Shown here: piece after piece, positions 150 to 60,828 of the stretch | Numbering within the stretch: position 1 is the stretch's first letter | Layout: each line of letters opens with the position of its first letter | NCBI GenBank assembly: GCA_964561085.1 | Contig: CAZLNP010000001.1 | Span: 147,201-211,200 of the forward strand | DNA length: 64,000 nt | Direction of reading: 5' to 3' | From: an uncultured Candidatus Saccharibacteria bacterium | GTDB taxonomy: Bacteria; Patescibacteriota; Doudnabacteria; UBA920 | The notes under the pieces: model-generated | The model's database searches: none | Seen by the model: only the letters and a program-made list of their open reading frames with translations | Told to the model about the DNA's origin: nothing | Program-made: the position numbers and the translations under genes

Positions 150-698
150 CTAATTAGATCTACTAGAGCCGGTCTCCGAATCGCTATCGGGAACCAGTGA
201 ATCGTCCTGACTTAATGTTAACGGGGCAATTTCAATAACTTTGTTAGTATCTGGTCTAAATAATATGGCTCTCTGAGCCTCCTGGTAGATTAAGACTTTA
301 TCCCCAGCTTTGGAATTTGCGAAGAACTCTTGATCTGCTAGCTTGGTTGGATCAGTAACGGTTGCTACTGTCGGCTCTTCCCCTACTGGGAGCTCTACTA
401 ACTGACCAACTTGGTCTACAATCTTTTGGCTTTCTTCTTTTGCTTTAGCGTTTGGATCGTTCTGGATTTGTTTCAACTCATTCTTTGCTTCTCTTAAATC
501 CATGTAGAATTTAACCGTAAATACTAATAATAGTAATCCGAAAATAATTACTAGTGCAATTAGAAGTTTCTTTTTATTTTGCTTCAAGCCATCAAGCACT
601 GAAGAAGTCTTAGATGTCTTAGAAAAATTTTGCGGCAAATCGAATGTTGAGTTAACAACAGAAGTAGACTTTATTTTAGATTTTAGTTTCTGTGGCAT
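150..698 (-). CDS. Hypothetical membrane protein (182 aa). Basic N-terminus, one TM helix (LLIALVIIFGLLLLVFTV), C-terminal soluble domain. Last gene of the minus-strand surface island.
   Basis: Intact ORF from the track. Hydrophobic helix visible in the translation. Sits immediately downstream of the giant protein gene on the same strand. Confidence 0.5.
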   Translation of the reverse strand: MPQKLKSKIKSTSVVNSTFDLPQNFSKTSKTSSVLDGLKQNKKKLLIALVIIFGLLLLVFTVKFYMDLREAKNELKQIQNDPNAKAKEESQKIVDQVGQLVELPVGEEPTVATVTDPTKLADQEFFANSKAGDKVLIYQEAQRAILFRPDTNKVIEIAPLTLSQDDSLVPDSDSETGSSRSN

Positions 699-781: not shown

Positions 782-3700
782 TTATTCTAATCCGAGAGAA
801 TTATCGGAAGAGGGTTCTTCAGTGGAGCTTGGTTCTTCTGGTTCTGTTGATGGTTCATCTATATTATTACCGCCATCAGTAGGCTCTTCGTCCTGATCTG
901 ACGAACCAGTTGAATCTGTTGAATCGCTCGATTCATCTACTTGGGGTTCATCGTTAGGTTGAGAATCGGAACCATCCGAACTAGAGTCATCGTAGAAATA
1001 TTCATCAGTTTGATCCCCTGCCACTTCACCTGTATCTAGCTCTATCTGATCTCCTGCTGAGATTACCAATCTTGGATTCTTTACCGCCAAAGCTATCCAG
1101 CTAAATGTGAGATCTTGAGGAGCCGGTTGGTTTAAGATAATTCGGAAGCCATTCTGACTCTTTCTTGTAACTAAGTGCTGTACATTACTACCAAACAATA
1201 ACTCAATGTTAGAGTCATCAATAATGTTCATGGCGTCTATCACTTCTTGGTTTACCTCTTCAAGAAGCTGTTCATCTTGCTCTTGGGTAATTGCCACACT
1301 AACAATTGGTTGTTCTAAGTATGAGCGCTCAAATGTTACGTCTACGTATCTGTCGCCTTGTAAAATTTTGGCATAGCCAGCTGTGTCTGAATTAAAGAAC
1401 GGGCGACCAATGAATACAAGGTCAGAAAGCACATCTATACTTCTGCCAGAGCTTCCAATCGTCAGCACTTGTAAGCCATCTGCCACAATGTTCGGAGAAA
1501 TTACTTCGAACGTTGCACTTAGTCTATCTGTAAGAATTTGAGAAGATACACCGACATCCTTCTTTTGAGTCTTCATTTGCTTTAGGAAAGCAAGGATTCT
1601 ATCTTGTTTAGTTTCTCTGAGTTCTAAATCGCCGCTTTCAAGAAGAACAGAATCTTCGTCTGGCATTTCTTCTAGGCCCATTTCTGCAATAGCGGCGTCC
1701 ATTTCTTCCATCAGCTGTTCGATTGGTAAACCGTTAAAGCTGCCAAGTTCTACGAACATCATGACTTTGCCACACATTTCCAAATCAACACTTGGCTCTT
1801 CTACTACTTCGTCAGCATCTGCAGTAGTTTCTTCGGTTTCACTTGTGGATTCTTCTGTTGACTCATTTGAAAGATCTTCAGATTCATTATTAGTTTGAAT
1901 TGAACACACTTCTTGCTGTTCTGCAGACAGGCTAGAATCAAGAGCTCTTCCAATTGCTAGCCCAGAACTTGTCGCACGCATAGCATGGCCTTCAATAGAG
2001 GAAGCTGTTAAGTAATCCCCTGGTTGTACCGGACCATTTTCATCGCTAAACTTTACAGGAATACGTCCAGTCAATGCTATTGGATAACCATCTGCTAATC
2101 TTTCTCCCAAAATAATTGCCGGTCTACTCGCCACCACACCAAGCACTCTCTGATTATTTTCACCAGTGTAAAGTACTACGTCGTCACCGTCACCGTTTGG
2201 ATCGATGGAAACTACATCCCCCGCTTGTAGGTTATTAGTAGAGTAATAGTACTCAGCCAAATCGGCTCCACCAGTGAATCCAACTTCTGTACCCAAACTA
2301 CCAACCGCTGTAACACCATCCAAAACTAACTCGTTTCTAATGTTATATAGCTGGTTTGTTATATAATCTAATCCTTGTCCTAACTGAACGTTTTCTGCTT
2401 GGGACCACATATGCTCATCAGTAGCCATTAATAGAGAGCGCTTAGAAAGATCTATGGAACGAATATCATCTGAGTCAGAATCCGTATCTGTCCATTCAGT
2501 TCCATGATCATCAGTCTTTTTAGCGTCGCCGTGGAAAATATCTGCAATTACGTTTGGACCTGCTTGGTGGTTATAACAAGTTACGCCACCAGTACCAGTT
2601 GTACTGTCTGTACCAACACAAAGCAATCTTGCTTCTCCGAGTAAAGCTTTGTTCGTTAATCCAATTGCAACTACAGCATTAGAATCGCCATATAGAGCTT
2701 CTGGGTCGACCTCGAAGTCCGTAGTTGTGTCTGGAGTAACATCAAATGGAATTGCCACTGTCATTGTGTCCGTGGTATTAGAAATTACACGACGTGTTTG
2801 GCCGGCACCAGTACCGCTGGTCAAGTTAACAATTAAACCTGCAAATTCATTCGGGAACCAAGTTTCTCCCGTGTCTGTAATTGTTGTTGAGGTAGCAGCT
2901 GTAGCGTTGTCTACTGTAATTACACGCTTGTTTACCAAAGGACGAGCATCGTTAAATAGACGGCGTTGTTGAGCATTACTTACTGTGGCAAGTGTTGTAG
3001 TTTGCACCGCAAATGTAAAGTCATCGATAGAACCGTTCCAGAAGTTTGAGCCAGCTGCACAGTTCACAGAACCTGCACATGAAGCACCAAGGCTAACAAT
3101 TTGGCTTCCGTCAAAGGTCGTAGCTAAGGCTGTAGCAGTACTTAAGTTAATTGCTTGCCCATCTAGATACACGTCAACGTCACCCGCGTTTGTGCGAGAA
3201 ATTGTTATCATATGCCATTGGTTATCATTATACAATTGAGATGTTGTTGCGGTAATGTCATAGGTGGTGCCTAAAGTCCAGCTGGCATCATCATCTACTC
3301 CGACACGGATTGTTCCAGTAGTTGTCATAGTAGCATCTACACAACCTGTTGCTGCTGTACCCGCTGCGACATAACATTTACTAAAGAGTACTTCAGGTGC
3401 TCCAGGGAGACTAGTAGAATGTTTAAACCACATACTGACCGTCCACCCAACGGTAGATATATTGAATGCCGTATCTACGTCACAAGTACCGTCCGAGGTT
3501 GTATCAGAACATAAGTATCCAGCGCCACCTAAGTCAACAGCTTTACCACGAACACCACTCACCCCTTGTGTGTAGGTTCCTTTGTAAGTCATATCATTGT
3601 CTACAATAGTGTCGCTGTCTGCAGTTGTTGTTGTGTCATCCAAAGGAAGAGCAACGTCAATATACTGATGCTTCATCATACTTTGACGATTTGTATCGAA

Positions 3701-6700
3701 CCACTTTACCCAGCCTGTTGCTGTTGTAGTGTGGCCATGCAATTCAGTCAAACCTAGACTGTGTCCAACATAAATTAAATCTTCTGTTTCTAGGGCAGAT
3801 GATGCACGTTCAATTACATCAATCGCGTCTGGTGCACCTACTATCATGTTTGGTGTAGTTTTAGAAAGTGCTGGTGTTGTAGATTGATCCCATACCGCGC
3901 TGTAAGCTCCATTAATTTCATTAATTTTGTCTGCATCAAAGTTATCCCAACGTTCCAATTGGTCCAGAGTAGTATTTAGAGCGTACATTCTACCAGTCTT
4001 AGTCAAATGCACAGCAGTGTAATCATTATCCGTTGCATCGGAATATTGAATCAGCTGACTTGTAGCCATGTTAATAACAGTAAGGCCAGAATTTGTTGCC
4101 AATGCAATATAAGTACCTCCATACCCTGGAGTTAAGTTAGTAGCAGCACCAATAGTAGACGCAGTGATTGTAATGTTAGGGTTAACAACAAACACATCAT
4201 TAATTGTTTCCCAACCAGCAATGGTACCAGTTACTGCAATGTCTAAGTTGGTATTATTATCTACGTTATAATTCACAGCCCCGTTACGACTTCCAATTCC
4301 AACGTCTGCACCAGAACGATCTGTAGCATCGTAGTTCCACATACGATCGTTAATAAAGTCGAAAGCGTAAAGCCCGTCACCCGCTCCATTAGAACCGTCG
4401 GTTGTACCAACATAGATAACACCATTCATAGCGGTTACGCTGGAAGGATCATTGCTAGTATCTACACCCAAAGCGTACCCACTAGCGTTTTGGCTAAACT
4501 TCATCCACAATGTATTGTTAGAAGTATCAAAAATATACAAAGCATTAGCAGTTACAGCCAAGGTTGCTTTTCTTGGAAAAGAGGAAGCACCACAACGATC
4601 GTCAGTTGAAATGTTACAAATTGAACCGACTGCGTCTTTTGTTTCGTTATACCAAGATAGTCTTTCTGTTGTTGCCCAGTCTACCCAGCGACCACCATCA
4701 CTGTCAGCGGTAGTATCATACAAGAACACATCTTTTACACCAGCTAGTGCTGTTAAGTTTCTAGCACCAATAGTAGTGATGTCGCCGTATACATCTAAGT
4801 CCCCTCTATTAATAGCTTCACCAATTTGAAGCATGCTAGTAGGAGCTGCTGTTCCAATACCAACATAACCATTCATGAATGCAGCGGCATACTCTATGCC
4901 AGCACCCGAGCCAGCATCTATGTATGCACCATAACTTGTTACATTTGTAGTTGATGCACCAGTTATTTTTAAGCCAGCATAAGTACAAGCACCAGTAGCA
5001 CAAGCAGTCATAGTAGGAGCTTCAATATTTAAACCATTAATTTGTTTAGTTCCAGCGCCAGATGTGTTAACAGTAATTGCTAGATTCAAACCATTAGTGA
5101 TTGATTCACTTGAAGCGTTAGTAGAGGCGTTAGTATATGTCAAATTTACTAGACTGCCAGTTTGAGTTGCACCTGGGTCATAAGAAGCGCCAGTAACATT
5201 AATTGCGTTTCCTCGAGTCAATACAGTACCCATGTTAATCTCTATAACTTTTCCAGTAGTTAAAGAAGTGGCATTAAATGTTGCGAGCCTGCCAGTGGCA
5301 GTAGAGTTGGCTGTTAAGTTTAACAATCCACCTGATCCAGTGTAAGCACCAGAAGCTTGAAGTTGAACAATGCCGTTAGACACAGAACCAGTTGTTGCAG
5401 ATGTAACTTTAAAAGCAGACCCTGAAGTAAGCCCTGTTCCTGAAGAAGTGACAGTTAAGTTATCTGTTGTAGTTGTTGCACCCCAATCCAAAGTTTGAAC
5501 AGTTGTACCCATCGCAACAGCGCCATTACCTGCAGCATCGCCGATTGTATCGAAAGTAGTAGAGCCGCCACCAGCGATTGTACAATCTGTACGAGTTGAA
5601 CCAGCGTTGTCTACACAAGCAACTCCTGCACCTGTAAAGTTCAAGGTAGCGCGCTGTGTTAAGCTACCAGCTTCATCTTGAATAGTGGTGTATCCACCAC
5701 CAGCTGAACAAGCACCCCAAAGAATTGTAGTAGCATTTGCTTTCAAACATTCTGTATCTGAACCACGAGCCAAACGGGTTGAGTTAGTGCCATTATGGTA
5801 CAGTAAGTCACCATTAGTTGTGAGTTGAGATAGATTGTTAATTGCATTCTGCGATGTTGATGCTCCAGTACCACCATCTGCAACTGCAATATCAGTTCCG
5901 TTCCATATGCCTGTAGTAACAGTGCCATTGTTAGCTGTAACTACAAGACCGTTAAAGCTAGTTGCTCCAGTGATTGCACCAGACAGTGCAAGTGAACTCA
6001 ATGTTCCGACGCTCGTCAAAGAAGAAGCAGTCACATTAGCAGCTAAGGTTGACCCTGAAATATCTGCTGCTGCGTTAACAGTTATATTAGCATTTGGGAA
6101 TGTGTAAGTTTTATCTGATCCTGTTAAGTCTGCGGTTGTAAAAATACCAGCGAAAGTCGCACCAGTTCCAGTAGTTTGAGGTTTAATATTGATTGTGTCT
6201 GTATTAGCAGTTGTAGATGAGGCTACAATTGAACCTGTAGTCGTAGCAATAAGATTAACATTCTGAGCGGCTCCACCTGCGGTAAATGATAGAGCACCAG
6301 TTCCGGTGATTGAACCATTCGCTGTTCCAGTACCGCCAAGCGAAACTGGAAGCTGTGCATTCACTGACCATGTTCCAGAAGAAATACTTGGTACACCTGT
6401 TGATGCTGAAGTGTTAATTCCAGTACCACCGTAGGTACCAGCAATAGCAGTCCCATTCCAAACACCAGTTGTAATTGTTCCGATGGAAACTAAAGATGAC
6501 AAAGTTGTCACACCTGATGTAATTAAAGTTCCTGTGGTTGGAAGTGTCACGTTTGTAGCACCAGTAGTTGTAAGTGTAAGAGCGTTTGCTCCCGCTGTTG
6601 TAAATGCTGCCGCTGTATTAATGTTGCCGCCAAGGGTAATTGTGTTGCTACCATTGTTTACTCCTGTGCCACCATAAGTTGAGCCGACCACTGTTCCCTG

Positions 6701-7558
6701 CCAAGCTCCTGCAGTAACAACTCCGCTTGCGTTTACACTAAATGCATTTGCGGTTCCAGAAGTTAATGTTCCAGATACATCTACATTTCCTGTTATAGCT
6801 AAATCACTTCCAGAAGGTGCAATTGTTAAATCGCCTCCGGATGAGGTTGTGAAGGAAGAATAGTTTGCTGCGTCGTAGCCAACTCTTAATTGTTCAGTTG
6901 TAGATGTGACATGCAATTTTGCAGAAGTAGTGGCTGTTCCAATTCCTACATTACCACCAGTTAAGTTCCAACCAGCTCCGCTTCCTACAGAAGTCAAAGT
7001 TGTGAATCCGTTAGATGCTACTCCCAAAGTTGCGCGGTTAGAGCCATCATAATTAAATGCTGCTTGGGTGGCGGTATTAGTAATGTCCACCAGACCTGTG
7101 CCCTTAAGATTGCTTGCCAAGAAAGCGACTGGAACTGTTCCAATCTTCTTTCGTGGAGTCATTTCTCCATCCCAACTAGGTGTCCCTGTTCCTCCGATGT
7201 TTACACTCAAAAATAAAGTCTGATTAAAATCTAGACTACCAAAAGGGTTAACCTCTCCCAACATCACACTAAACACCCCATTAGTGACTGTCACTTTATC
7301 TCCAGCAGTACGAGTTTCGGTCCAAAGAAGACTTCCTCCACTTACAGCGTCGTAAAGTTTGAACTCCATGTTATAGTCACCATCCGCAACAGCGACATTG
7401 CTACCATTTGTTAGTTTTCCCTGGTAGTTAATCTCTGCATTATAAGCAGCAATGGCCGAACGTTCATAATTGAAAGTAGATGCTACTGTAGCCAATACAA
7501 CTAGAAGGCCTATTAACGCGAAAGCTATGCGCACGGTAGGAGTAAAGAGTTTAATCAT
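782..7558 (-). CDS. Giant surface protein (about 2,258 aa). N-terminal signal/anchor helix, long Thr/Gly/Ser/Asn-rich repeat region, central LamG/ConA-like lectin-fold domain, C-terminal acidic Asp/Glu/Ser/Pro-rich tail.
   Basis: Uninterrupted 6.8 kb ORF. The ORF track starts at 7591 (MRKCEQ...). The internal Met at 7558 (MIKLFTPTVRIAFALIGLLVVLATVAS) gives a typical signal/anchor and avoids overlap with the upstream HTH gene. LamG-like signature '...WTVSMWFKH...NQWHMITISRTNAGDVDVYLDGQ' is encoded around 3050-3450. Confidence 0.8.
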   Translation of the reverse strand: MIKLFTPTVRIAFALIGLLVVLATVASTFNYERSAIAAYNAEINYQGKLTNGSNVAVADGDYNMEFKLYDAVSGGSLLWTETRTAGDKVTVTNGVFSVMLGEVNPFGSLDFNQTLFLSVNIGGTGTPSWDGEMTPRKKIGTVPVAFLASNLKGTGLVDITNTATQAAFNYDGSNRATLGVASNGFTTLTSVGSGAGWNLTGGNVGIGTATTSAKLHVTSTTEQLRVGYDAANYSSFTTSSGGDLTIAPSGSDLAITGNVDVSGTLTSGTANAFSVNASGVVTAGAWQGTVVGSTYGGTGVNNGSNTITLGGNINTAAAFTTAGANALTLTTTGATNVTLPTTGTLITSGVTTLSSLVSIGTITTGVWNGTAIAGTYGGTGINTSASTGVPSISSGTWSVNAQLPVSLGGTGTANGSITGTGALSFTAGGAAQNVNLIATTTGSIVASSTTANTDTINIKPQTTGTGATFAGIFTTADLTGSDKTYTFPNANITVNAAADISGSTLAANVTASSLTSVGTLSSLALSGAITGATSFNGLVVTANNGTVTTGIWNGTDIAVADGGTGASTSQNAINNLSQLTTNGDLLYHNGTNSTRLARGSDTECLKANATTILWGACSAGGGYTTIQDEAGSLTQRATLNFTGAGVACVDNAGSTRTDCTIAGGGSTTFDTIGDAAGNGAVAMGTTVQTLDWGATTTTDNLTVTSSGTGLTSGSAFKVTSATTGSVSNGIVQLQASGAYTGSGGLLNLTANSTATGRLATFNATSLTTGKVIEINMGTVLTRGNAINVTGASYDPGATQTGSLVNLTYTNASTNASSESITNGLNLAITVNTSGAGTKQINGLNIEAPTMTACATGACTYAGLKITGASTTNVTSYGAYIDAGSGAGIEYAAAFMNGYVGIGTAAPTSMLQIGEAINRGDLDVYGDITTIGARNLTALAGVKDVFLYDTTADSDGGRWVDWATTERLSWYNETKDAVGSICNISTDDRCGASSFPRKATLAVTANALYIFDTSNNTLWMKFSQNASGYALGVDTSNDPSSVTAMNGVIYVGTTDGSNGAGDGLYAFDFINDRMWNYDATDRSGADVGIGSRNGAVNYNVDNNTNLDIAVTGTIAGWETINDVFVVNPNITITASTIGAATNLTPGYGGTYIALATNSGLTVINMATSQLIQYSDATDNDYTAVHLTKTGRMYALNTTLDQLERWDNFDADKINEINGAYSAVWDQSTTPALSKTTPNMIVGAPDAIDVIERASSALETEDLIYVGHSLGLTELHGHTTTATGWVKWFDTNRQSMMKHQYIDVALPLDDTTTTADSDTIVDNDMTYKGTYTQGVSGVRGKAVDLGGAGYLCSDTTSDGTCDVDTAFNISTVGWTVSMWFKHSTSLPGAPEVLFSKCYVAAGTAATGCVDATMTTTGTIRVGVDDDASWTLGTTYDITATTSQLYNDNQWHMITISRTNAGDVDVYLDGQAINLSTATALATTFDGSQIVSLGASCAGSVNCAAGSNFWNGSIDDFTFAVQTTTLATVSNAQQRRLFNDARPLVNKRVITVDNATAATSTTITDTGETWFPNEFAGLIVNLTSGTGAGQTRRVISNTTDTMTVAIPFDVTPDTTTDFEVDPEALYGDSNAVVAIGLTNKALLGEARLLCVGTDSTTGTGGVTCYNHQAGPNVIADIFHGDAKKTDDHGTEWTDTDSDSDDIRSIDLSKRSLLMATDEHMWSQAENVQLGQGLDYITNQLYNIRNELVLDGVTAVGSLGTEVGFTGGADLAEYYYSTNNLQAGDVVSIDPNGDGDDVVLYTGENNQRVLGVVASRPAIILGERLADGYPIALTGRIPVKFSDENGPVQPGDYLTASSIEGHAMRATSSGLAIGRALDSSLSAEQQEVCSIQTNNESEDLSNESTEESTSETEETTADADEVVEEPSVDLEMCGKVMMFVELGSFNGLPIEQLMEEMDAAIAEMGLEEMPDEDSVLLESGDLELRETKQDRILAFLKQMKTQKKDVGVSSQILTDRLSATFEVISPNIVADGLQVLTIGSSGRSIDVLSDLVFIGRPFFNSDTAGYAKILQGDRYVDVTFERSYLEQPIVSVAITQEQDEQLLEEVNQEVIDAMNIIDDSNIELLFGSNVQHLVTRKSQNGFRIILNQPAPQDLTFSWIALAVKNPRLVISAGDQIELDTGEVAGDQTDEYFYDDSSSDGSDSQPNDEPQVDESSDSTDSTGSSDQDEEPTDGGNNIDEPSTEPEEPSSTEEPSSDNSLGLE

Positions 7559-7802
7559 ACACAACCTCCGCTTTTGTTCGCATTTGCGCACTGCGAGAAT
7601 GCTTCACTTTTTGTTGTTTCAAATACAATAAAACCGCCCCACGTGTAGTGAGCCAGTTTCTAGCTATCTTCATTGCTTTTAGATGTCCTGTTCTCGCTCT
7701 TAAACTCAAGTACTCGGCTGAGTATGGAGTAAAGTTTGCAGCTTCAGAGATTGAGATTAAATCTCCTGAGGCTAAAAAGGACTTCTTTTCCCTTTCTGAC
7801 AT
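7551..7802 (-). CDS. Small helix-turn-helix DNA-binding protein (83 aa, excisionase/MerR-like HTH), immediately upstream of the giant protein gene.
   Basis: ORF with the segment 'ISISEAANFTPYSAEYLSLRARTGHLKAMKIARNWLTTRGAV', which resembles an excisionase-family HTH. Its stop codon lies 2-4 nt from the proposed giant-gene start. Confidence 0.5.
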   Translation of the reverse strand: MSEREKKSFLASGDLISISEAANFTPYSAEYLSLRARTGHLKAMKIARNWLTTRGAVLLYLKQQKVKHSRSAQMRTKAEVVYD

Positions 7803-7940
7803 ATTGTATTTTAGTTTTTGTTTCTTGTATTGATCTTCGCTTTTTTACCGATGATCAATATTTGCTATCCGATACTTTTTCTATATCAAGTATAGCAGTT
7901 TTATTGCGTTTTGTCAATGCTATATTAAAAAAGAGTTGGA

Positions 7941-9284
7941 TTATTCCAACTCTTTTTTCTCTTCATTGCTTCGCAAGGAAATTTGTTTTCTAATTCTTAC
8001 TACTCTCCAAAAATGTACTGTCACAATTACTGCGGCGAGGCCCACTGTTCCTATGATAACGGGGTTCGGAAGTCCTTCCTGTCCCGATTCTTCCCTGCTA
8101 TCCACTTCTGCCTGCGCTTCATTAATTACTTCAACAGAGCCCGAAACCTTTTCAAGTATTAATTTTGTCGAATTAAATACTGTGACAACTAATGCATAGT
8201 TTTTTGGATTTTTAAACGCTGGGGTTTTTACCCTATACTCACCGCTCTCTTTATCGTAAAAAAACAGATAGGTCGAGCTAGAAGATTTTTTTTCAGGATC
8301 GGCAACAGTCAACGTTAAGAATGACCCATCTTCAGGTAGACGACTCCTCGGGATTGAAATTTCTAAACCTTGTCCTACAGGAATCACTGGGTTGTCTAAA
8401 TCCAAAGTAAGACCATCGCGATAGGAAAAATTAAAATCTTTAAACAGACTTGGAATCAGTGGTGGGTTCTTTACCGAAGGAAGTTGTATGTCTACTGCAG
8501 GAGCTGTTGGATCTGTGTTGACTTCATCACTGCTGGCGATCATTGTATACGAAACGGATCCGGAAGAATAATTACCAGTAGTGTCCTTAGAGAACGCTGT
8601 ATAAAAATAAATTACACCGGGCACTACATTGTCATCATAAAAATTACTTCCAAGACCTTCATAGATCACAGCTCCATTTAAAGGATCTAAAGGAAAAAAC
8701 TTTTCTGATTTTACTATTCTAACTAAATTAAAATCTGATTCTGTTGGATTGTTCCAACTTAAATGAATATGTTTTAATTGAGGAGTTGCAGAAAACTCAC
8801 TAACATTGCTGGGTGGTTCTGTGTCTGGTGGGCTAAGTGTTACGAATACATCTTGATACTTACTCTCGGCACCATTTGTCCCGGTAGAAATTATTTGAAA
8901 GTAGTATCTTTTATTTGGTAATAGATCTGAAATTAGAGCTGAATGATTCTTGGTATATTGTTCTCCAGCAACAGTGCCATCTCTATAGTCAGGGTTAGTG
9001 CCCCAAGAAACGCGGGACAACGCTAAGTCTTGTGTGACCCAATTTATTGTCGCCGAATCGTAAGAAGTTGTTACTGCAACTCTACTTATTTTTGGAGGAC
9101 TAACCGTTGGAGGCGCCCCTCCTCCTGTAGATCCTGGCACAGGATCAACTCCGGTATTACTAGGCTGACCAACCTGAACACCACTACTTGCTGCATAGAT
9201 TAAAGCAGGCGTACTTAAAAATATTGAGCAAGTAAAAATCCCCAACGAAAATAAAGTAAAGATTCGGCTGATTTTGAATTTCAT
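7941..9284 (-). CDS. Membrane-anchored surface protein with two fibronectin type III-like domains (447 aa). N-terminal signal peptide, C-terminal TM helix and charged tail.
   Basis: Signal 'MKFKISRIFTLFSLGIFTCSIFLSTPALIYA'. FN3-like blocks ('ATINWVTQ...YYFQIISTGTNGAES', 'HIHLSWNNPTE...YFYTAFSKDTTGN'). C-terminal 'IIGTVGLAAVIVTVHFWRVVRIRKQ'. Confidence 0.65.
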   Translation of the reverse strand: MKFKISRIFTLFSLGIFTCSIFLSTPALIYAASSGVQVGQPSNTGVDPVPGSTGGGAPPTVSPPKISRVAVTTSYDSATINWVTQDLALSRVSWGTNPDYRDGTVAGEQYTKNHSALISDLLPNKRYYFQIISTGTNGAESKYQDVFVTLSPPDTEPPSNVSEFSATPQLKHIHLSWNNPTESDFNLVRIVKSEKFFPLDPLNGAVIYEGLGSNFYDDNVVPGVIYFYTAFSKDTTGNYSSGSVSYTMIASSDEVNTDPTAPAVDIQLPSVKNPPLIPSLFKDFNFSYRDGLTLDLDNPVIPVGQGLEISIPRSRLPEDGSFLTLTVADPEKKSSSSTYLFFYDKESGEYRVKTPAFKNPKNYALVVTVFNSTKLILEKVSGSVEVINEAQAEVDSREESGQEGLPNPVIIGTVGLAAVIVTVHFWRVVRIRKQISLRSNEEKKELE

Positions 9285-9293
9285 AACTAAGTT

Positions 9294-10097
9294 TTATAGA
9301 GCTACTGCAGTGACGGTAATATTAGCTTCGTAATTTCCATTAGGTTGGATATGACTTGAACCTACTTCAGCCTGCATCTTCACAGTAGTAGTAGTCCCCG
9401 ACGGATGATTCCCAGTTGTTCGTTCAGCAATTTGTTGGTCAGAAGTAGTAAGCTTGTCCCAACATCGATCTGTAGTATCACTTCCCCCTATAGCATCACA
9501 CGTAGCACCATTATCTTTGTATCTTTGAATAATATCTACTCCTTCTGGAGTAAATCCGTACTCGCTATCTGCTGAGGCTACTGACCATAAATAGTCCGGC
9601 GCAGCTCCACTTGTTGTATAGTCAGCAAAATCACTGGAAGCGCTTCGCAATGCTGGATTAGTATCGGCTTTAATTGTTAGCGAATATCCTGCTGGATTAT
9701 CTGTAATGACTGTCCAAACAGTTGAACCGCTACCGACTCCACCAGAAACTCCAGAGATTGCTGGACTCATTGTTACATCGCTTCCACTACTAATAGCTAA
9801 GTATGTGAGTTGTGCGCCTATGAATCCTGCGTTTATTCCATAGCTGCCACTCGCAGAGTCTCCAGTAGCTATCTCGCCAACTGTATCGAACAAACCATAA
9901 GAGGTAGATGATCCATCTTGCCCCCCAACGTTAATTGAATCTAACGGAATCTTATATGCTGTGCCAGCCATTTGTGCATGGATATGGGTCGCAGTTCCCA
10001 CTGACACAGACATCAACAAAAAAAACAGCACAGCAAACCTGAAAGTTTTGCCTGCACTGATTTTTGTTATTAAAATTTTAATTTTTTCTAAATTCAT
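9294..10097 (-). CDS. Secreted protein (267 aa), WxL-like. Paralog of the 11186-11836 gene.
   Basis: Signal peptide. Motif 'GSTVWTVITDNPAGYSLTIKADTNPALRS' is shared with its paralog and resembles the proximal WxL motif ([LI]TWT[LV]xDxP). Conserved C-terminus '...YEANITVTAVAL'. Confidence 0.55.
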   Translation of the reverse strand: MNLEKIKILITKISAGKTFRFAVLFFLLMSVSVGTATHIHAQMAGTAYKIPLDSINVGGQDGSSTSYGLFDTVGEIATGDSASGSYGINAGFIGAQLTYLAISSGSDVTMSPAISGVSGGVGSGSTVWTVITDNPAGYSLTIKADTNPALRSASSDFADYTTSGAAPDYLWSVASADSEYGFTPEGVDIIQRYKDNGATCDAIGGSDTTDRCWDKLTTSDQQIAERTTGNHPSGTTTTVKMQAEVGSSHIQPNGNYEANITVTAVAL

Positions 10098-10139
10098 CCT
10101 AATCGCTTACTAATGATACTGGCCAGCGGTTAGTGATTG

Positions 10140-11111
10140 CTATTTTTTACGTTTGATTTCAAATGAGCGCACTAACCGACGAAGGATAAAGGCTACCACA
10201 ATAATTGCTGCCAAGAAACCTACTACTATTTTCCAAGGTAGCACCCAAAAAGAAATAGTCTTTACATCAACTTCGTCTGGTGACTCCCTGTAGCCGCGGT
10301 CGATTGTTGCTGTTGCAGTATAACGACCAAAGGCGAAGTCTGATTCCCAAGTAACTACAGCTGCGCGTAGAGAGTCGGGCAAACTAAAGAAAGGGGCTAC
10401 TTCAATATCTTTAACACTACGTCCGAGCATGTTCTTAATTTGAACTTTACCGCTTGGAGTTAAGTGGACACTACTGTTATTTTCGTAAAGTAATTCGAAA
10501 TTAAAGGGTCCTTTTTCATGGAAAGCTTTATCATTTTCCATACGGAAATCTGTAAGCAATGAAGACTCTTTTACCTTGCCTTCAACACGAACAAAATACA
10601 AAGCACCGATTCTAGAAATAGTTTTTGCTTTGTTATCTAGTTCAGCATCGTCATCTGAAGATGGTGCGCTAGAAACCAAAACTGAACCATAGTGACCGCC
10701 TGGCTCTGCTTCTGCTGGAATAGTCACTACTACATCCAAAACGGCACGCTGTTTTGGTTTAAGTTTAAACGAATCCTTCTCTGGCTTGATGTAATCCTTT
10801 AAAGAATATGGGCCTTTGTCATTTCCTAAAAGAACTACAGGATTCTTTAAATCTTTCGAGCCCGTGAAGTCTTCTACGCTAACCGTAAAAGTTTGTTCTC
10901 GGTCGGTTCTGTTAACAACAGATAAACTTCGAGTTGCTTTCTCCCCTCTCTTTAAAAAGAGTTCTGTCTTAGCAGGGCCAACTACGAAGTCGTCACGAAT
11001 TTCCGCGGAAGTGTCTGTAATAGTAATCGCATAAGCAGTTGGAGCTAATCCAAAAGTTAATATTGAAATACTTATTAATACAAACCAACGGTTGAGGTTG
11101 AATTTTTTCAT
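10140..11111 (-). CDS. Signal-peptide protein with C-terminal TM anchor and KRKK tail (about 323 aa). Architecture resembles the DUF916/DUF3324-type anchored partner of WxL (Csc) loci.
   Basis: The ORF track starts at 11132. The internal Met 'MKKFNLNRWFVLISISILTFGLAPTAYA' at 11111 gives a clean signal peptide. C-terminus 'VVGFLAAIIVVAFILRRLVRSFEIKRKK'. Flanked by the two WxL-like paralogs. Confidence 0.55.
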   Translation of the reverse strand: MKKFNLNRWFVLISISILTFGLAPTAYAITITDTSAEIRDDFVVGPAKTELFLKRGEKATRSLSVVNRTDREQTFTVSVEDFTGSKDLKNPVVLLGNDKGPYSLKDYIKPEKDSFKLKPKQRAVLDVVVTIPAEAEPGGHYGSVLVSSAPSSDDDAELDNKAKTISRIGALYFVRVEGKVKESSLLTDFRMENDKAFHEKGPFNFELLYENNSSVHLTPSGKVQIKNMLGRSVKDIEVAPFFSLPDSLRAAVVTWESDFAFGRYTATATIDRGYRESPDEVDVKTISFWVLPWKIVVGFLAAIIVVAFILRRLVRSFEIKRKK

Positions 11112-11185
11112 CTTAGTATCAGAATACCACACTTTATGAGTGTGGTATAGTGGAAAATTATATTTAGTCTGCTTTGTATCTCAAC

Positions 11186-11836
11186 TTATAAAGTAGTAGC
11201 TGTAGCAGTGATTGTTGCTGAGTAAGAACCAGCTACTGCGAAAGTTGTATCTTGTTCAGTTGCTACACACATGTTAGCTACTGTACCAGATGTAGTTGTT
11301 GGAGCTGCTGCTGTAGCGATTTGGTCAGCTGAGCCAGTCAAATCGAAGTCTCTCCATTTTAGACCAGCGCTTGGTACGTCTGCACCAGCGATACAATCAG
11401 CATCTGTGCCATATGTAGAAGTGTTAACATCTGTGCCGAATGCTGAGAAACCAAATTCTACATTAGACGCAGGAACTGACCATGTTTCAGGTGTTTCAGA
11501 TACTGTAGGAGTGTAGTCAACGATGTTACCACCGCCACCAGAACGGGACAGTGCAGGGGCACTTGAAGCATGAAGAGTCAAAGTATACCCGTCATCGTTG
11601 TTTGTGATTACAGTCCAAGCTGCGGTGCCTACTGCTGTATTTTGAGAAGTAGACAATGCAGTCATTGTAATGTCTGAAGGTGAGCTTAGAGAAATCTCTG
11701 AAGTTACCGATTGGTTTACTACTACGTCGTCTGTATCTGTAGCAGCACCTGTGATCCTTGGTTCTACAAACGCAAATAGTCCTGAAACCATAACAGCGCT
11801 AGCAACCAACAAAATAAAGTTATTCTTTAAGTTCAT
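11186..11836 (-). CDS. Secreted protein (216 aa), WxL-like. Paralog of the 9294-10097 gene.
   Basis: Signal peptide 'MNLKNNFILLVASAVMVSGLFAFVEP'. Motif 'GTAAWTVITNNDDGYTLTLHASSAPALSRS'. C-terminus '...YSATITATATTL'. Clear paralogy with the 267-aa protein. Confidence 0.55.
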   Translation of the reverse strand: MNLKNNFILLVASAVMVSGLFAFVEPRITGAATDTDDVVVNQSVTSEISLSSPSDITMTALSTSQNTAVGTAAWTVITNNDDGYTLTLHASSAPALSRSGGGGNIVDYTPTVSETPETWSVPASNVEFGFSAFGTDVNTSTYGTDADCIAGADVPSAGLKWRDFDLTGSADQIATAAAPTTTSGTVANMCVATEQDTTFAVAGSYSATITATATTL

Positions 11837-13363: not shown

Positions 13364-14515
13364 TTATGCTGCTGATTTTTTAAATAAGTCTGCCTCGTTT
13401 AATTGCTTTATATTCTGAGATAATACAACTACCTTATTATACTCCATATAGGCCACTACAACCCCTAGAAATAGCATCCCCCCAAGAATTTGCATAATGA
13501 GCGTTCTATTTGAAAATGGGGAAGAAGTAGATGAGCCTGCAGCTACAGGTTCTTCGCTAGATACAATCTCGAAAGTATCTGTAGAGGTAGCGATTAAATC
13601 CTCAGAGGGAACTGCGACTGTTAATGTATATTCACCCAATGGTAGAGTTGTGGTGGTAAGGAATGATTTAGAGTACTCTAGAGCACCTTTAACTGCCATG
13701 GTTTCCGAATTTTCAGAAACAATATCTTCATCTTTGTTTGTAATAGTGTATTGTACTTCTACGTCGACAGCTTTATCGGGACTACTAAAGTTAATAAATT
13801 TAATATCTGCAACGATAGGATCACCAACTAATACTTCTTTGGACTCACTATTAATTACAGCTCTTACATCGAACAACGCTCCCCCGTTTCCAAGTTGTGG
13901 CGTGTTATTAAATTTAGGAGCTAATGGCTCTTCATTCTCTCCTAACACAATTTCAAACAAGAATGAGTCAGTGGCCAATACCTTACTCGACACACCTCTT
14001 GAAACTTTAGCAGTTAAGGTATAAGTTCCTGGTTTTAGCGGAACAGTTGATTCCCAGGTCCAGTTACCATTAGTGTCCGCTAATGATTTTCCCGTTACAT
14101 TGTTTACCCCAAAAAGGTTCAATGCTACATTCCCATCAGGAACATTAGTATGTCCTATAAATTTAGGAAATTGATTTCTAAAAACAAAGATTGCCTGGAC
14201 CTCTCCATCTTGTAAGATATATCTTTGCTGGATAGAGTCACCTGGGATTACTGTAATCTCTGGAGTTAAATCAGGAATAGAGGTTTCTTCATTTGAGGCC
14301 GTGCTTGCCCTGCTACTATTCGAGATCACTTTAACGTCTGGTTCGACTGGGTGGTCTGCCAACAAAATGGGACGATTAGAGTTTTCGGCACTCACTGAGG
14401 TCAAAGCAATTCCAAGTACCCAAGCAAAAAATGCCACTAAAATTACACTAGTGACAAAAGTGACTGCATGATAGCTCCGCCTAATATGGTGATGTGCTAA
14501 ACCTGTTTGTTTCAT
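13364..14515 (-). CDS. Hypothetical surface protein anchored at both ends (383 aa). N-terminal TM, beta-rich Ig-like middle, C-terminal TM.
   Basis: 'VTFVTSVILVAFFAWVLGIALTSVSA' near the N-terminus and 'IMQILGGMLFLGVVVAYMEY' near the C-terminus. Confidence 0.5.
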   Translation of the reverse strand: MKQTGLAHHHIRRSYHAVTFVTSVILVAFFAWVLGIALTSVSAENSNRPILLADHPVEPDVKVISNSSRASTASNEETSIPDLTPEITVIPGDSIQQRYILQDGEVQAIFVFRNQFPKFIGHTNVPDGNVALNLFGVNNVTGKSLADTNGNWTWESTVPLKPGTYTLTAKVSRGVSSKVLATDSFLFEIVLGENEEPLAPKFNNTPQLGNGGALFDVRAVINSESKEVLVGDPIVADIKFINFSSPDKAVDVEVQYTITNKDEDIVSENSETMAVKGALEYSKSFLTTTTLPLGEYTLTVAVPSEDLIATSTDTFEIVSSEEPVAAGSSTSSPFSNRTLIMQILGGMLFLGVVVAYMEYNKVVVLSQNIKQLNEADLFKKSAA

Positions 14516-22483: not shown

Positions 22484-24214
22484 CTAGTTATTCTTTTCAC
22501 AAATATTAACTACTACACCTTCATCTACGTAACCCATGGCTAGGACTTCGCCTTTTTCCTTGGTGCTAGTAGTTTCTAGGTAATCACTTTGTGGGTAGCC
22601 TTTATGCAAACGGAACCATGGAAGTGCTCCAGAAGCATTATTGCTGAATCCGTATCCTAAGATGCCTTCGTTTGCGTAGCCGTAGTTAGTTGCATCATTA
22701 GTTGTAGAATAATAGTGAGCTTTCACACCTGAATGGTAGCTACGGTAAATTTCAGTTGTACCCGCTACTTTCTCTTTGTAAACATATCCAGCTATTCCTT
22801 CGTAGACATAATCCCCTGGACGTTCATTGGCATTAGTTGTGAAGAAGTGATCTCCATCAGCTGCTTTCCAGAAACGGTATATTGGCATCAACTTGTCTTT
22901 GTTAGATGAACAATTACTTGCGCTACCACCGCCGCCGCCTGAACCACCGCCGCCGCCAGTTGTGCTACCGCCGGTTACTTTCCAAGTGAAATCTTTCTTA
23001 GCCAGATTTTTTTCACCTGTCTGAGGTCCACATTGAGCTGAGATAGACACTACATATGTTCCTGCTGCACTCGGTGTTGCTGTGAAAGTAGCTCTACCAG
23101 TACGATCAGATTGTATATTATCTAACCCAGTGATTTTAGCTCCTGACATACTTGGGGTAACTTTATCTAAGGTCCAAGTACATGTTGATGTTTCTGAGTT
23201 GATTGTTTGAAGATTGAATGAAGATTCTTGTCCAACTTTTCCTTCTGTGAAGGTACCGCTAATATCAAGTGTTGCAGGCAATGGAGGTTGTCTAGTTGGT
23301 TTTACTACCCAACTAAAATCTTTAGTTGTTGCAGCCTTGGCGTCTGAACCAGTTGTGGCACAAGACACACCGATTTTAACAGCGTAAGTACCAGATTCAG
23401 TTGGAGTGGCACTAAATAATGCTGAAGATTCTTGAGTAGCTGCAACATTATCTACACGAGTGACAGTTGCACCAGTGATTTTTGGATTAACATCTGTTAG
23501 TTCAAACGTACAGTTAGCACCATTTGCGTTTGTTGTTTGTAAATTAGTTGAATATGGTTGTCCGACTAAAGATTCAGAGAAATTTCCAGCAACACCTAGT
23601 CCTACTGCTGTAGCAGGAGAAACTTTCCAAACAAATGTTTTACTTGTTGTCTGGCCATTCTTACAAGTGACCTTAACAGTAACTTCATAGTCTCCAGCTT
23701 CCTTAGGAGTGGCTGTAAACTCTGCAGTGCTAACACTACTATCATTATTCACCTTAAGTGATGCGCCAGAGATTTCAGGTTTAACTCCTACTAAAGTCCA
23801 TTCACAAGGTAAAGCTGTTGAGCTACTTACTTGCAACTGTTTAGTATATAGAGCGCCAGCCTTACCTTCAGAAAAACTTCCAGAAATGGTTATTTTATCT
23901 GTTTCGTCAGAAGGCTGATCCCAAAGTCCTCCACAACCAGCGACATCTTCTCCTACTAAATCAACAGGACAGTTTGCTTGCTGATACATTGGGTTCAATT
24001 GCAACCCAAAGATAGAGATTTTTTGACCAGTGATCATTGCAGTTCCTGCAAGAACGATAATAATCGCCATCACAAGACCGGCAACAGACAATGTTCTGTT
24101 GGAATTTATCCAAGCCAAGAATTTTCCAGGCTTTTTTGAAGGGTCCTGTTGATTGTTAGGAACCTTCGGTGCACCAGAAGAATCTGGAGGCACAACGTAC
24201 TCAACTTCGTTCAT
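22484..24214 (-). CDS. Membrane-anchored surface protein (576 aa). N-terminal TM, three Ig-like repeats, Gly/Ser linker, C-terminal module with three 'YRFxxxxGxHFYT'-type repeats.
   Basis: TM 'LSVAGLVMAIIIVLAGTAMITG'. Repeated about 90-aa blocks ('ISGTFTEGK...', 'TLDISGTFTEGK...'). 'GGGGGSGGGGGS' linker. Repeats 'IYRFWKAADGDHFFTTNANE', 'IYRSYHSGVKAHYYSTTNDA', 'WFRLHKGYPQSDYLETTSTKE'. Confidence 0.6.
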   Translation of the reverse strand: MNEVEYVVPPDSSGAPKVPNNQQDPSKKPGKFLAWINSNRTLSVAGLVMAIIIVLAGTAMITGQKISIFGLQLNPMYQQANCPVDLVGEDVAGCGGLWDQPSDETDKITISGSFSEGKAGALYTKQLQVSSSTALPCEWTLVGVKPEISGASLKVNNDSSVSTAEFTATPKEAGDYEVTVKVTCKNGQTTSKTFVWKVSPATAVGLGVAGNFSESLVGQPYSTNLQTTNANGANCTFELTDVNPKITGATVTRVDNVAATQESSALFSATPTESGTYAVKIGVSCATTGSDAKAATTKDFSWVVKPTRQPPLPATLDISGTFTEGKVGQESSFNLQTINSETSTCTWTLDKVTPSMSGAKITGLDNIQSDRTGRATFTATPSAAGTYVVSISAQCGPQTGEKNLAKKDFTWKVTGGSTTGGGGGSGGGGGSASNCSSNKDKLMPIYRFWKAADGDHFFTTNANERPGDYVYEGIAGYVYKEKVAGTTEIYRSYHSGVKAHYYSTTNDATNYGYANEGILGYGFSNNASGALPWFRLHKGYPQSDYLETTSTKEKGEVLAMGYVDEGVVVNICEKNN

Positions 24215-60751: not shown

Positions 60752-60828
60752 TGGTGCGCGCGCATGGATTCGAACCATGGACCGCAAAGGTATAAGCTTT
60801 GTGCTCTAACCAGCTGAGCTACGCGCGC
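60752..60828 (-). tRNA. tRNA with anticodon UAU, predicted to read AUA (Ile). 77 nt including the encoded CCA.
   Basis: Manual cloverleaf from the reverse complement: GCGCGCG-UA-GCUC-AGCUGGUU-AGAGC-A-CAAAG-CUUAUAC-CUUUG-CGGUC-CAUGG-UUCGAAU-CCAUG-CGCGCGC-A-CCA. All four stems are fully paired. U33, A37 and a canonical T-loop are present. Confidence 0.8.

Follow-up and report, generated by a model that had tools for sequence, protein, structure and literature searches.

A giant Patescibacteria protein with the part order of a phage receptor-binding fibre, and its probable role as a secreted cell-surface adhesin

The gene at positions 782 to 7,558 of a 64,000-nucleotide stretch of DNA from an uncultured Candidatus Saccharibacteria bacterium (Patescibacteriota, Doudnabacteria, UBA920; assembly GCA_964561085.1, contig CAZLNP010000001.1, positions 147,201 to 211,200; the whole stretch is called the window below) encodes a single protein of more than two thousand amino acids (aa), here called the giant protein. 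With moderate confidence, we conclude that it is a Sec-secreted, probably trimeric, phage-tail-fibre-like adhesin by which a bacterium of the Patescibacteria (the candidate phyla radiation, CPR) holds a host cell. Its parts come in the same order as those of the fibres with which phages bind their receptors, from a constant end for attachment through a repetitive stalk and a variable head to a constant, self-cleaving chaperone. Because these parts follow one another in this order behind a predicted Sec signal peptide, we propose a secreted trimeric fibre with which the cell probably seizes its host, and not a simple lectin anchored in the membrane. An earlier note, made from the sequence of the window alone, had described a repetitive protein with a LamG core, an acidic tail and a membrane helix. 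Its list of modules was incomplete, as it missed an Ig-like N-terminal domain, the propeller that bears the LamG domain, a G2-type chaperone and an H-type-lectin-like domain.

Results

An intact gene with conserved ends and a variable middle

The open reading frame (ORF) is intact and not a chimera, because the same protein (P0001) is encoded with 100% identity on the NCBI contig (216,756 bp) and in an independent Logan assembly of SRR12762285, and because a homologue, P0003, is colinear with it over 96% of its length at 63% identity. A frameshift or assembly chimera is thereby excluded, and the one giant ORF of about 2,258 aa that the earlier note had drawn at 782-7558 stands. On the minus strand, the uninterrupted ORF spans 782..7591 if a GTG is taken as its start. 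The start that gives 2,258 aa is the ATG at 7558, which follows a GGAGG at a distance of 6 nt and whose methionine lines up with the first residues of relatives.

Scans of the whole protein against Pfam, NCBIfam, PHROGs and PDB sequences gave only a weak match to Laminin_G_2, and the modules were then profiled from homologues (Table 1). The sharing of each part was mapped against the 119 best relatives; those that are named come from Nomura-, Magasanik- and Vogelbacteria and from Paceibacterota. Residues 1-200 are common to about 90 of these relatives and residues 1750-2200 to about 50-80, and residues 600-1700 are found in only about 10-14. Conserved ends around a variable middle would be expected of a protein that is attached by a fixed end, binds its receptor with a variable part and has a fixed chaperone.

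A C-terminal cassette that resembles phage fibre chaperones

The C-terminal cassette contains a module that is homologous to the intramolecular chaperone of the phage phi29 protein gp12. A profile of 28 homologues over aa 1760-1880 found gp12 as its top match in the PDB (3gqh, expectation value E=0.0038; 6qz9, E=0.0052). The match to 3gqh begins at residue 1 of the crystallised autochaperone (D692), and the match to 6qz9, the full-length protein, begins one residue earlier at S691; gp12 is cleaved between S691 and D692. Alignment of the profile with gp12 residues 680-854 by hhalign (94.8% probability, E=5e-8) pairs A1765-D1766-L-A-E1769 with S691-D692-F-A-E695, and PDB entry 3suc has Q where gp12 has E695. 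The Pfam family Peptidase_G2 (PF11962) is matched by 8 of the 28 homologous modules (best 1.8e-4), further matches of the profile include proteins with a precomputed PF11962 assignment, and the second half of 7 of the 28 modules matches phage cement or minor-capsid-like models. About 72 of 76 family modules have the D-x-A-E motif, in each case 237-664 residues from the C-terminus, and its A and E are each at least 90% conserved.

One relative has a different phage chaperone in the same place. P0012 (1,849 aa; locus L088, 6001-11550) has its gene at the corresponding locus after rpoC, preceded by the same genes as that of the giant protein. Its N-terminus is 60% identical to that of the giant protein and its last domain 40% identical, but its middle and head are different, and it carries Peptidase_S74 at the position of the G2 module. 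This indicates a cassette exchange at a fixed locus. Two unrelated types of phage chaperone are interchangeable at one position, and what G2 and S74 have in common is trimer-assisted folding followed by self-cleavage.

The rest of the cassette lies beyond the predicted cut. Among 25 homologous modules, 14 match the H-type lectin family PF09458 (best 1.1e-6); H-type lectins are trimeric. The acidic Ser/Asp/Glu/Pro tail that the earlier note had recognised is borne out at aa 2190-2258, and there is a second acidic stretch at aa 1885-2010.

A repetitive, probably fibre-like shaft

The shaft contains a GxWxGT...GGTG motif three times, at aa 284, 365 and 550. The three repeat copies are similar to each other beyond chance: their Smith-Waterman scores are 86-114, and shuffled controls that preserve local composition (block shuffles) reach a maximum of 79 with a 99th percentile of 67. 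A hidden Markov model (HMM) of the repeat detects all three; across the 120 proteins examined, it detects 277 copies, which are spread over 24 proteins and number as many as 29 in a single one. The repeats that the earlier note had described are thus real, in three copies, and their unit is about 80 aa long instead of about 35. Its estimate of more than 60% Thr/Gly/Ser/Ala/Asn over the N-terminal two thirds applies to aa 201-900 (66%) but not to the first 1,505 aa (56%). A sub-module at aa 650-915 is common to other family members, with identity up to 59%.

Repeat units of relatives match PHROGs that are annotated as tail fibre, minor tail or structural proteins, with E down to 6.6e-14. The whole giant protein has no match in PHROGs, the repeat profile has none in Pfam, and its best match in the PDB, the spike gpV of phage P2, is not significant (E=0.35-0.8). 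The monomer model of the shaft is poor, with a predicted local distance difference test score (pLDDT) of 31-50 over aa 270-570. Such a model would be expected of an intertwined trimeric fibre, but it proves nothing. Of the fibre or beta-helix-like shaft that had been suggested from the sequence, the fibre-like part agrees with the matches of the relatives to tail-fibre PHROGs, but no single-chain beta-helix is predicted.

Several observations weigh against a self-cleaving trimeric fibre. The giant protein's own G2 module falls below the Pfam and NCBIfam thresholds, the E-values of the G2 profile against the PDB are only 0.004-0.005, and the module is modelled with low confidence (pLDDT about 45-73). 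The H-type-lectin assignment comes from the homologues, with E=0.16 for the giant protein's own module and no match of the profile in the PDB. The shaft model is uninformative, and repeat copy 1, the only copy of the giant protein that was individually reported, matches no PHROG. With about 490 aa, the cassette that would be cut off is of unusual length, and it holds a lectin-like domain that is possibly functional itself. Finally, autocleavage of gp12 reportedly needs ATP, and ATP is not available outside the cell.

In a different view of the C-terminus, the architecture is unchanged but the G2-like module no longer cleaves, the cassette stays on the fibre, and the H-type-lectin-like domain, alone or together with the head, forms the distal tip that binds the ligand or attaches the fibre a second time, to the cell's own wall. 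The region after the putative cut is conserved as well as long and has a lectin-type domain, secretion would remove the access to the ATP that gp12 reportedly uses, and 3 of the 76 relatives keep the module without D-x-A-E. We regard this view as unlikely, if quite conceivable. D-x-A-E is kept in about 95% of the modules, a degree of conservation that argues for retained catalysis, and G2 and S74 replace each other here, with chaperone-plus-cleavage activity being what both have.

A predicted beta-propeller head with a LamG insertion

The receptor-binding part of the proposed fibre would be a head at about aa 930-1721. An AlphaFold2 (AF2) model of aa 896-1900, made from 13 homologues (mean pLDDT 67.9, predicted template-modelling score 0.71), suggests about seven four-stranded blades, with an insertion between blades five and six that consists of a jelly roll, a helix and a small beta domain. 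The LamG/ConA-like domain that the earlier note had placed near the middle of the protein has the jelly-roll fold, but it lies about 60% along the protein and is inserted in the propeller. In a Foldseek search of the PDB, the jelly roll matched the Hc domain of clostridial neurotoxins (botulinum and tetanus, BoNT/TeNT), laminin LG4-5 and the LNS domain of neurexin. The Pfam match to Laminin_G_2 (E=8e-4) scores 20.3 bits, below the gathering score of 22.9, and relatives carry precomputed PF13385, PF00054 or PF02210. Among viral models, Foldseek matched many LamG-containing phage structural proteins; proteins with LamG only gave template-modelling (TM) scores, normalised to the target, of 0.59-0.67 with root-mean-square deviations of 3.3-5.4.

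Most of the invariant columns lie at aa 947-1120. A homology search with the propeller only returned three fragments and no more, and the head is therefore confined to close relatives. As a side observation, another family member, P0009 (3,552 aa; L089, 6001-16659), has both the head and the C-terminal cassette of the giant protein, and it has a faint precomputed match to Mtd_N, the N-terminal domain of the major tropism determinant of a Bordetella phage.

The head could also be read as that of a tailspike-like surface enzyme with a glycoside hydrolase or lyase as its propeller and LamG as its carbohydrate-binding module, which would degrade a polysaccharide of the host or the environment instead of only adhering. 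The Foldseek matches of the head in the PDB were propellers, namely WD40 proteins, the GH43 arabinanase 5hp6 (E=6e-11) and the trans-sialidase of T. cruzi, and in the best of them, 5hp6 and the trans-sialidase, the propeller is accompanied by a lectin-like beta-sandwich. The stretch aa 947-1100 has a cluster of conserved acidic, aromatic and Arg residues, and phi29 gp12 and the endosialidases are themselves enzymes. However, Pfam finds no glycoside hydrolase signature in the head, there is no sequence-level match to any glycoside hydrolase family, and the fold matches to GH43- and GH33-type propellers are low-scoring (TM-scores 0.13-0.21, identity 7-12%), with non-enzymatic WD40-type propellers matching equally well. 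The number of blades also differs, at about seven in the head, five in GH43 and six in sialidases. We consider an enzyme rather improbable and prefer to see the head as the binding end of an adhesin.

A probable signal peptide and a widespread N-terminal domain

The N-terminus of the giant protein most likely serves secretion and not anchoring. Full-length relatives have a basic n-region followed by a hydrophobic core, and all 69 of the 69 that could be scored have a small-x-small site, mostly AxA, 3-6 residues ahead of an invariant INYQGKL. Because these three features recur, the helix is most likely removed by signal peptidase I and, as judged from the sequences, would be a cleavable signal peptide instead of a stable anchor. 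In the earlier note, this helix had been the only anchor. On that reading, an adhesin whose shaft is beta-helical and whose core is a LamG domain is held in the membrane by the N-terminal helix, which stays uncut. A hydrophobic helix is indeed present at aa 11-27, and the LamG fold is confirmed; but the conserved cut site stands right before the conserved mature N-terminus in every scorable relative, no beta-helix is predicted, and the G2 and H-type-lectin modules are left unaccounted for, all of which makes such a membrane-held adhesin quite improbable. The note was right that other anchors are missing. There is no type IV pilin leader (no motif of G, cut, then F/M-x3-E within the first 60 residues), and no sortase anchor, as the acidic C-terminus has neither an LPXTG signal nor a hydrophobic segment. 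The sole LPXTG-like string is LPTTG at aa 339, which is inside repeat 2 and is not a sorting signal.

After the predicted cut comes the N-domain, which is modelled confidently (pLDDT 82-94 over aa 40-140). A weak sequence match (E=0.04) had raised the possibility of a CBM3/cohesin-like domain. This was rejected, since the fold search gave only generic Ig-like sandwiches, with no PDB match at E<=1e-3, and we treat the N-domain as an unclassified Ig-like domain. It defines a very large family: at E<=1e-3, its profile picks up 57,197 cluster representatives (25,616 at E<=1e-10), nearly always at about residues 25-190 and in proteins of up to 7,453 aa. It also occurs at 520 loci of species-representative genomes, and among the 80 of these that are listed, almost all are from Patescibacteria by their record titles. 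The N-domain was not found in the 2.9 million viral contigs of IMG/VR.

A cellular gene and its neighbours

The giant gene is cellular and not viral, as indicated by its context of rpoB, rpoC, dnaA, gyrA and polA, by the spread of the N-domain in Patescibacteria and by the absence of that domain from IMG/VR. The window is a core chromosomal region with a G+C content of about 40%, and it also encodes uvrB, a class A penicillin-binding protein and a type IV pilus ATPase. The cluster to which its RpoB belongs at 90% identity includes a protein that is named as coming from a Patescibacteria group bacterium. The neighbours of the giant gene include no phage genes, and the window has no paralogues of it elsewhere. 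There are several paralogues per genome; P0004 and P0037, for example, are on one contig. A genuine phage or prophage tail-fibre gene in the chromosome, to which tail-fibre-type repeats, a G2 chaperone and weak tblastn matches of the G2 module in jumbo phages (E=1e-5) might point, is very improbable given the predicted Sec signal peptide, the rpoB/rpoC and surface-protein neighbours in conserved synteny across genomes, the viral contigs that lack the N-domain and the multiple paralogues per genome.

A gene for a small bitopic membrane protein is just downstream of the giant gene. Each of the five other family genes that were examined, which belong to four other genomes, is followed by a homologue (about 145-220 aa, 39-62% identity), directly so in four cases and with one intervening gene in the case of P0012 (L088). 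This gene is kept even where the wider context differs. The protein has a Lys-rich N-terminus, one transmembrane helix and an ectodomain with the conserved motif PTVATVTDP.KLADQ.FFANS.AGDKVLIYQEA.RAILYRP..NKVIEIAPL; it has no significant match in Pfam or the PDB. We suggest that it may be an anchor or assembly partner of the giant protein.

Upstream, a small helix-turn-helix (HTH)-like gene overlaps the start of the giant gene. Copies that are 71-74% identical are directly upstream of the genes for P0004 and P0012, and those for P0006 and P0037 are preceded at the same position by an HTH_17/MerR gene (65-70 aa). A near-consensus extended -10 promoter-like site (11 of 12 positions, by consensus match only) is ahead of the HTH-like gene at 7917-7889 on the minus strand. 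Two hairpins were seen in the same region: a 13-bp terminator-like hairpin directly after the stop codon of the giant gene (745-775, minus; also by consensus match only), and a 14-bp palindromic hairpin flanked by A and T runs at 7927-7958, between the HTH gene and a gene for a 447-aa protein.

That 447-aa protein, which is FN3/purple-acid-phosphatase-N-like and has a C-terminal transmembrane helix, belongs to a syntenic gene cluster for secreted or anchored proteins between rpoC and the giant gene (7941-11836, minus) that is also present in L083 and L088. The cluster further encodes two mutually similar WxL-like proteins (216 and 267 aa) and a WxLIP_PGBD/DUF916-like protein of 330 aa with a C-terminal transmembrane helix. 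WxL loci are otherwise known from Firmicutes. Two secreted multi-domain surface proteins flank rpoB/rpoC, one of 576 aa with PKD, filamin and DUF5648 domains (22484-24214, minus) and one of 383 aa with Big_13 and Y_Y_Y domains (13364-14515, minus). Elsewhere in the window there is a tRNA-Ile with the anticodon TAT (UAU) at 60752-60828 (minus). This tRNA is uncommon in bacteria, where AUA is usually decoded by a lysidine-modified CAU tRNA.

Table 1. Parts of the giant protein and adjoining genes, with positions in the window unless a locus is named
Feature	Residues (aa)	Position	Strand	Basis or remark
Giant-protein coding sequence, complete	1-2258	782..7558	minus	2,258 aa; stop at 782-784
Predicted Sec signal peptide	1-37	7448..7558	minus	K3/R10 n-region; hydrophobic core aa 11-27; site A35-I36-A37/A38
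Conserved N-domain, Ig-like beta-sandwich	38-170	7049..7447	minus	motif INYQGKL…PRK; in about 90 of 119 relatives
Thr/Gly/Ser/Ala/Asn-rich shaft	171-900	4859..7048	minus	composition; low monomer confidence
Fibre repeat copy 1, GAWQGTVVGSTYGGTGVN	236-317	6608..6853	minus	repeat HMM E=6.6e-19
Fibre repeat copy 2, GVWNGTAIAGTYGGTGIN	319-399	6362..6604	minus	repeat HMM E=2e-24; internal LPTTG
Fibre repeat copy 3, GIWNGTDIAVADGGTGAS	504-584	5807..6049	minus	repeat HMM E=5.8e-10
Beta-propeller, first five blades	about 930-1320	3599..4771	minus	four-stranded blades in AF2 model; Foldseek
LamG/ConA-like jelly roll, inserted in propeller	1323-1519	3002..3592	minus	Pfam; fold matches
Small beta domain, second part of the insertion	1547-1617	2708..2920	minus	strands at model residues 652-722; pLDDT 68-90
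Beta-propeller, last two blades	1629-1721	2396..2674	minus	AF2 model
Long alpha-helix (neck)	1727-1747	2318..2380	minus	AF2 model residues 832-852
Peptidase_G2-type intramolecular-chaperone module	1765-1880	1919..2266	minus	predicted cut between A1765 and D1766; catalytic-type E1769
Acidic, partly helical linker	1885-2010	1529..1906	minus	26% Asp/Glu
H-type-lectin-like domain with acidic helical insert	2040-2165	1064..1441	minus	PF09458 matches among homologues
Acidic Ser/Asp/Glu/Pro tail	2190-2258	785..991	minus	35% Asp/Glu; 70% Ser/Asp/Glu/Pro
Bitopic membrane protein, downstream partner	182 in total	150..698	minus	homologues just downstream of other family genes
Partner homologue loci		L083 15531-16010; L087 13556-13891; L085 16172-16528; L089 16716-17117; L088 12773-13039		
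HTH-like gene	83 in total	7551..7802	minus	overlaps giant gene start by 8 nt

Discussion

We postulate the following course of events for the giant protein as a secreted fibre. The Sec signal peptide would be cut off during secretion, and the Ig-like N-domain would dock the fibre on the cell envelope, possibly via the neighbouring membrane protein. If it works as in phi29 gp12 and in the endosialidase-type (S74) fibres, the C-terminal cassette would nucleate trimerisation of the fibre outside the cell and then cut itself off between A1765 and D1766, which would leave a mature fibre of about 1,730 residues. The propeller/LamG head might then bind a glycan or a protein on the partner (host) cell.

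To our knowledge, how ultra-small episymbiotic Patescibacteria recognise and hold their hosts is largely unknown beyond type IV pili. If they use phage-like fibres with exchangeable heads, such fibres would be prime candidates for determinants of host specificity, and host range might be predicted from sequence. The giant protein would then be a case from bacteria in which a secreted protein of the cell is equipped with an intramolecular chaperone of the G2 or S74 type. More tentatively, we speculate that the phage fibre toolkit of tail-fibre repeats, exchangeable heads and self-cleaving G2 or S74 chaperones has been domesticated as a host-recognition organelle that is secreted throughout the phylum Patescibacteria and docked via the N-domain to the small membrane protein, and that heads are swapped at the rpoC-linked locus with a change of host. 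We hold this wider proposal to be possible but doubtful; if it is true, a cellular parasite would evolve its host range by the phages' own mechanism.

As a giant CPR adhesin, the giant protein is ordinary. Parcubacteria and other Patescibacteria encode very large, repeat-rich surface proteins with adhesion-type domains, including ConA-like ones, as sections of three papers describe (PMC4508563; PMC13059738; PMC10633639), and in the relevant sections of the first two such proteins are regarded as candidates for host adhesins or host contact. The giant protein resembles the proteins described there in having more than 1,500 aa, a predicted signal peptide, repeats, a beta-rich composition and ConA/LamG-type domains. 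Those sections of PMC4508563 and PMC13059738 give the size and generic adhesion domains, and the swapping of modules and the partner membrane protein are observations of the present analysis, at which no literature search was aimed. What is of interest here is the phage-fibre architecture, the module swapping and the conserved partner gene. Among the results listed by full-text keyword searches with incomplete coverage, no paper links Patescibacteria with S74 or G2 chaperones, endosialidase-type modules, tail-fibre-like or tailspike-like proteins, or tail-fibre repeats.

Cellular use of a phage intramolecular-chaperone autocleavage domain has a known example in MyRF, a membrane transcription factor in which a phage-type S74 intramolecular-chaperone autocleavage (ICA) domain was co-opted for trimerisation and self-cleavage (PMC8326128). 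In contrast to the giant protein, MyRF is eukaryotic and intracellular, its chaperone is of the S74 type, and its cleavage frees a transcription factor and produces no surface fibre.

Among phage proteins, the phi29 pre-neck appendage (tailspike) protein gp12 forms a homotrimer, and virions lack its intramolecular chaperone (PMC9863714). The giant protein is like gp12 in that its putative C-terminal intramolecular chaperone also starts with D-x-A-E and comes after a long, beta-rich body that would bind the receptor, and in that the N-terminal end would be the attachment end. However, gp12 is an 854-aa component of the virion without a signal peptide, with a right-handed beta-helix enzyme body and a chaperone of 163 aa, whereas the giant protein is cellular, has 2,258 aa, a predicted secretion signal and a propeller/LamG head, and continues past the putative cut site for about 490 aa that include a lectin-like domain.

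The endosialidase-type tailspikes and T5 pb1, which have S74 chaperones, share with the giant protein, as it is proposed here, the succession of an attachment domain, a fibre or stalk, a beta-propeller head and a C-terminal self-cleaving chaperone. In the tailspike endoNF, too, a lectin-like domain is inserted in the beta-propeller head. The giant protein differs from these tailspikes in being cellular, in having a G2-type module instead of S74 and in having no sialidase motifs, yet its positional orthologue P0012 itself carries S74.

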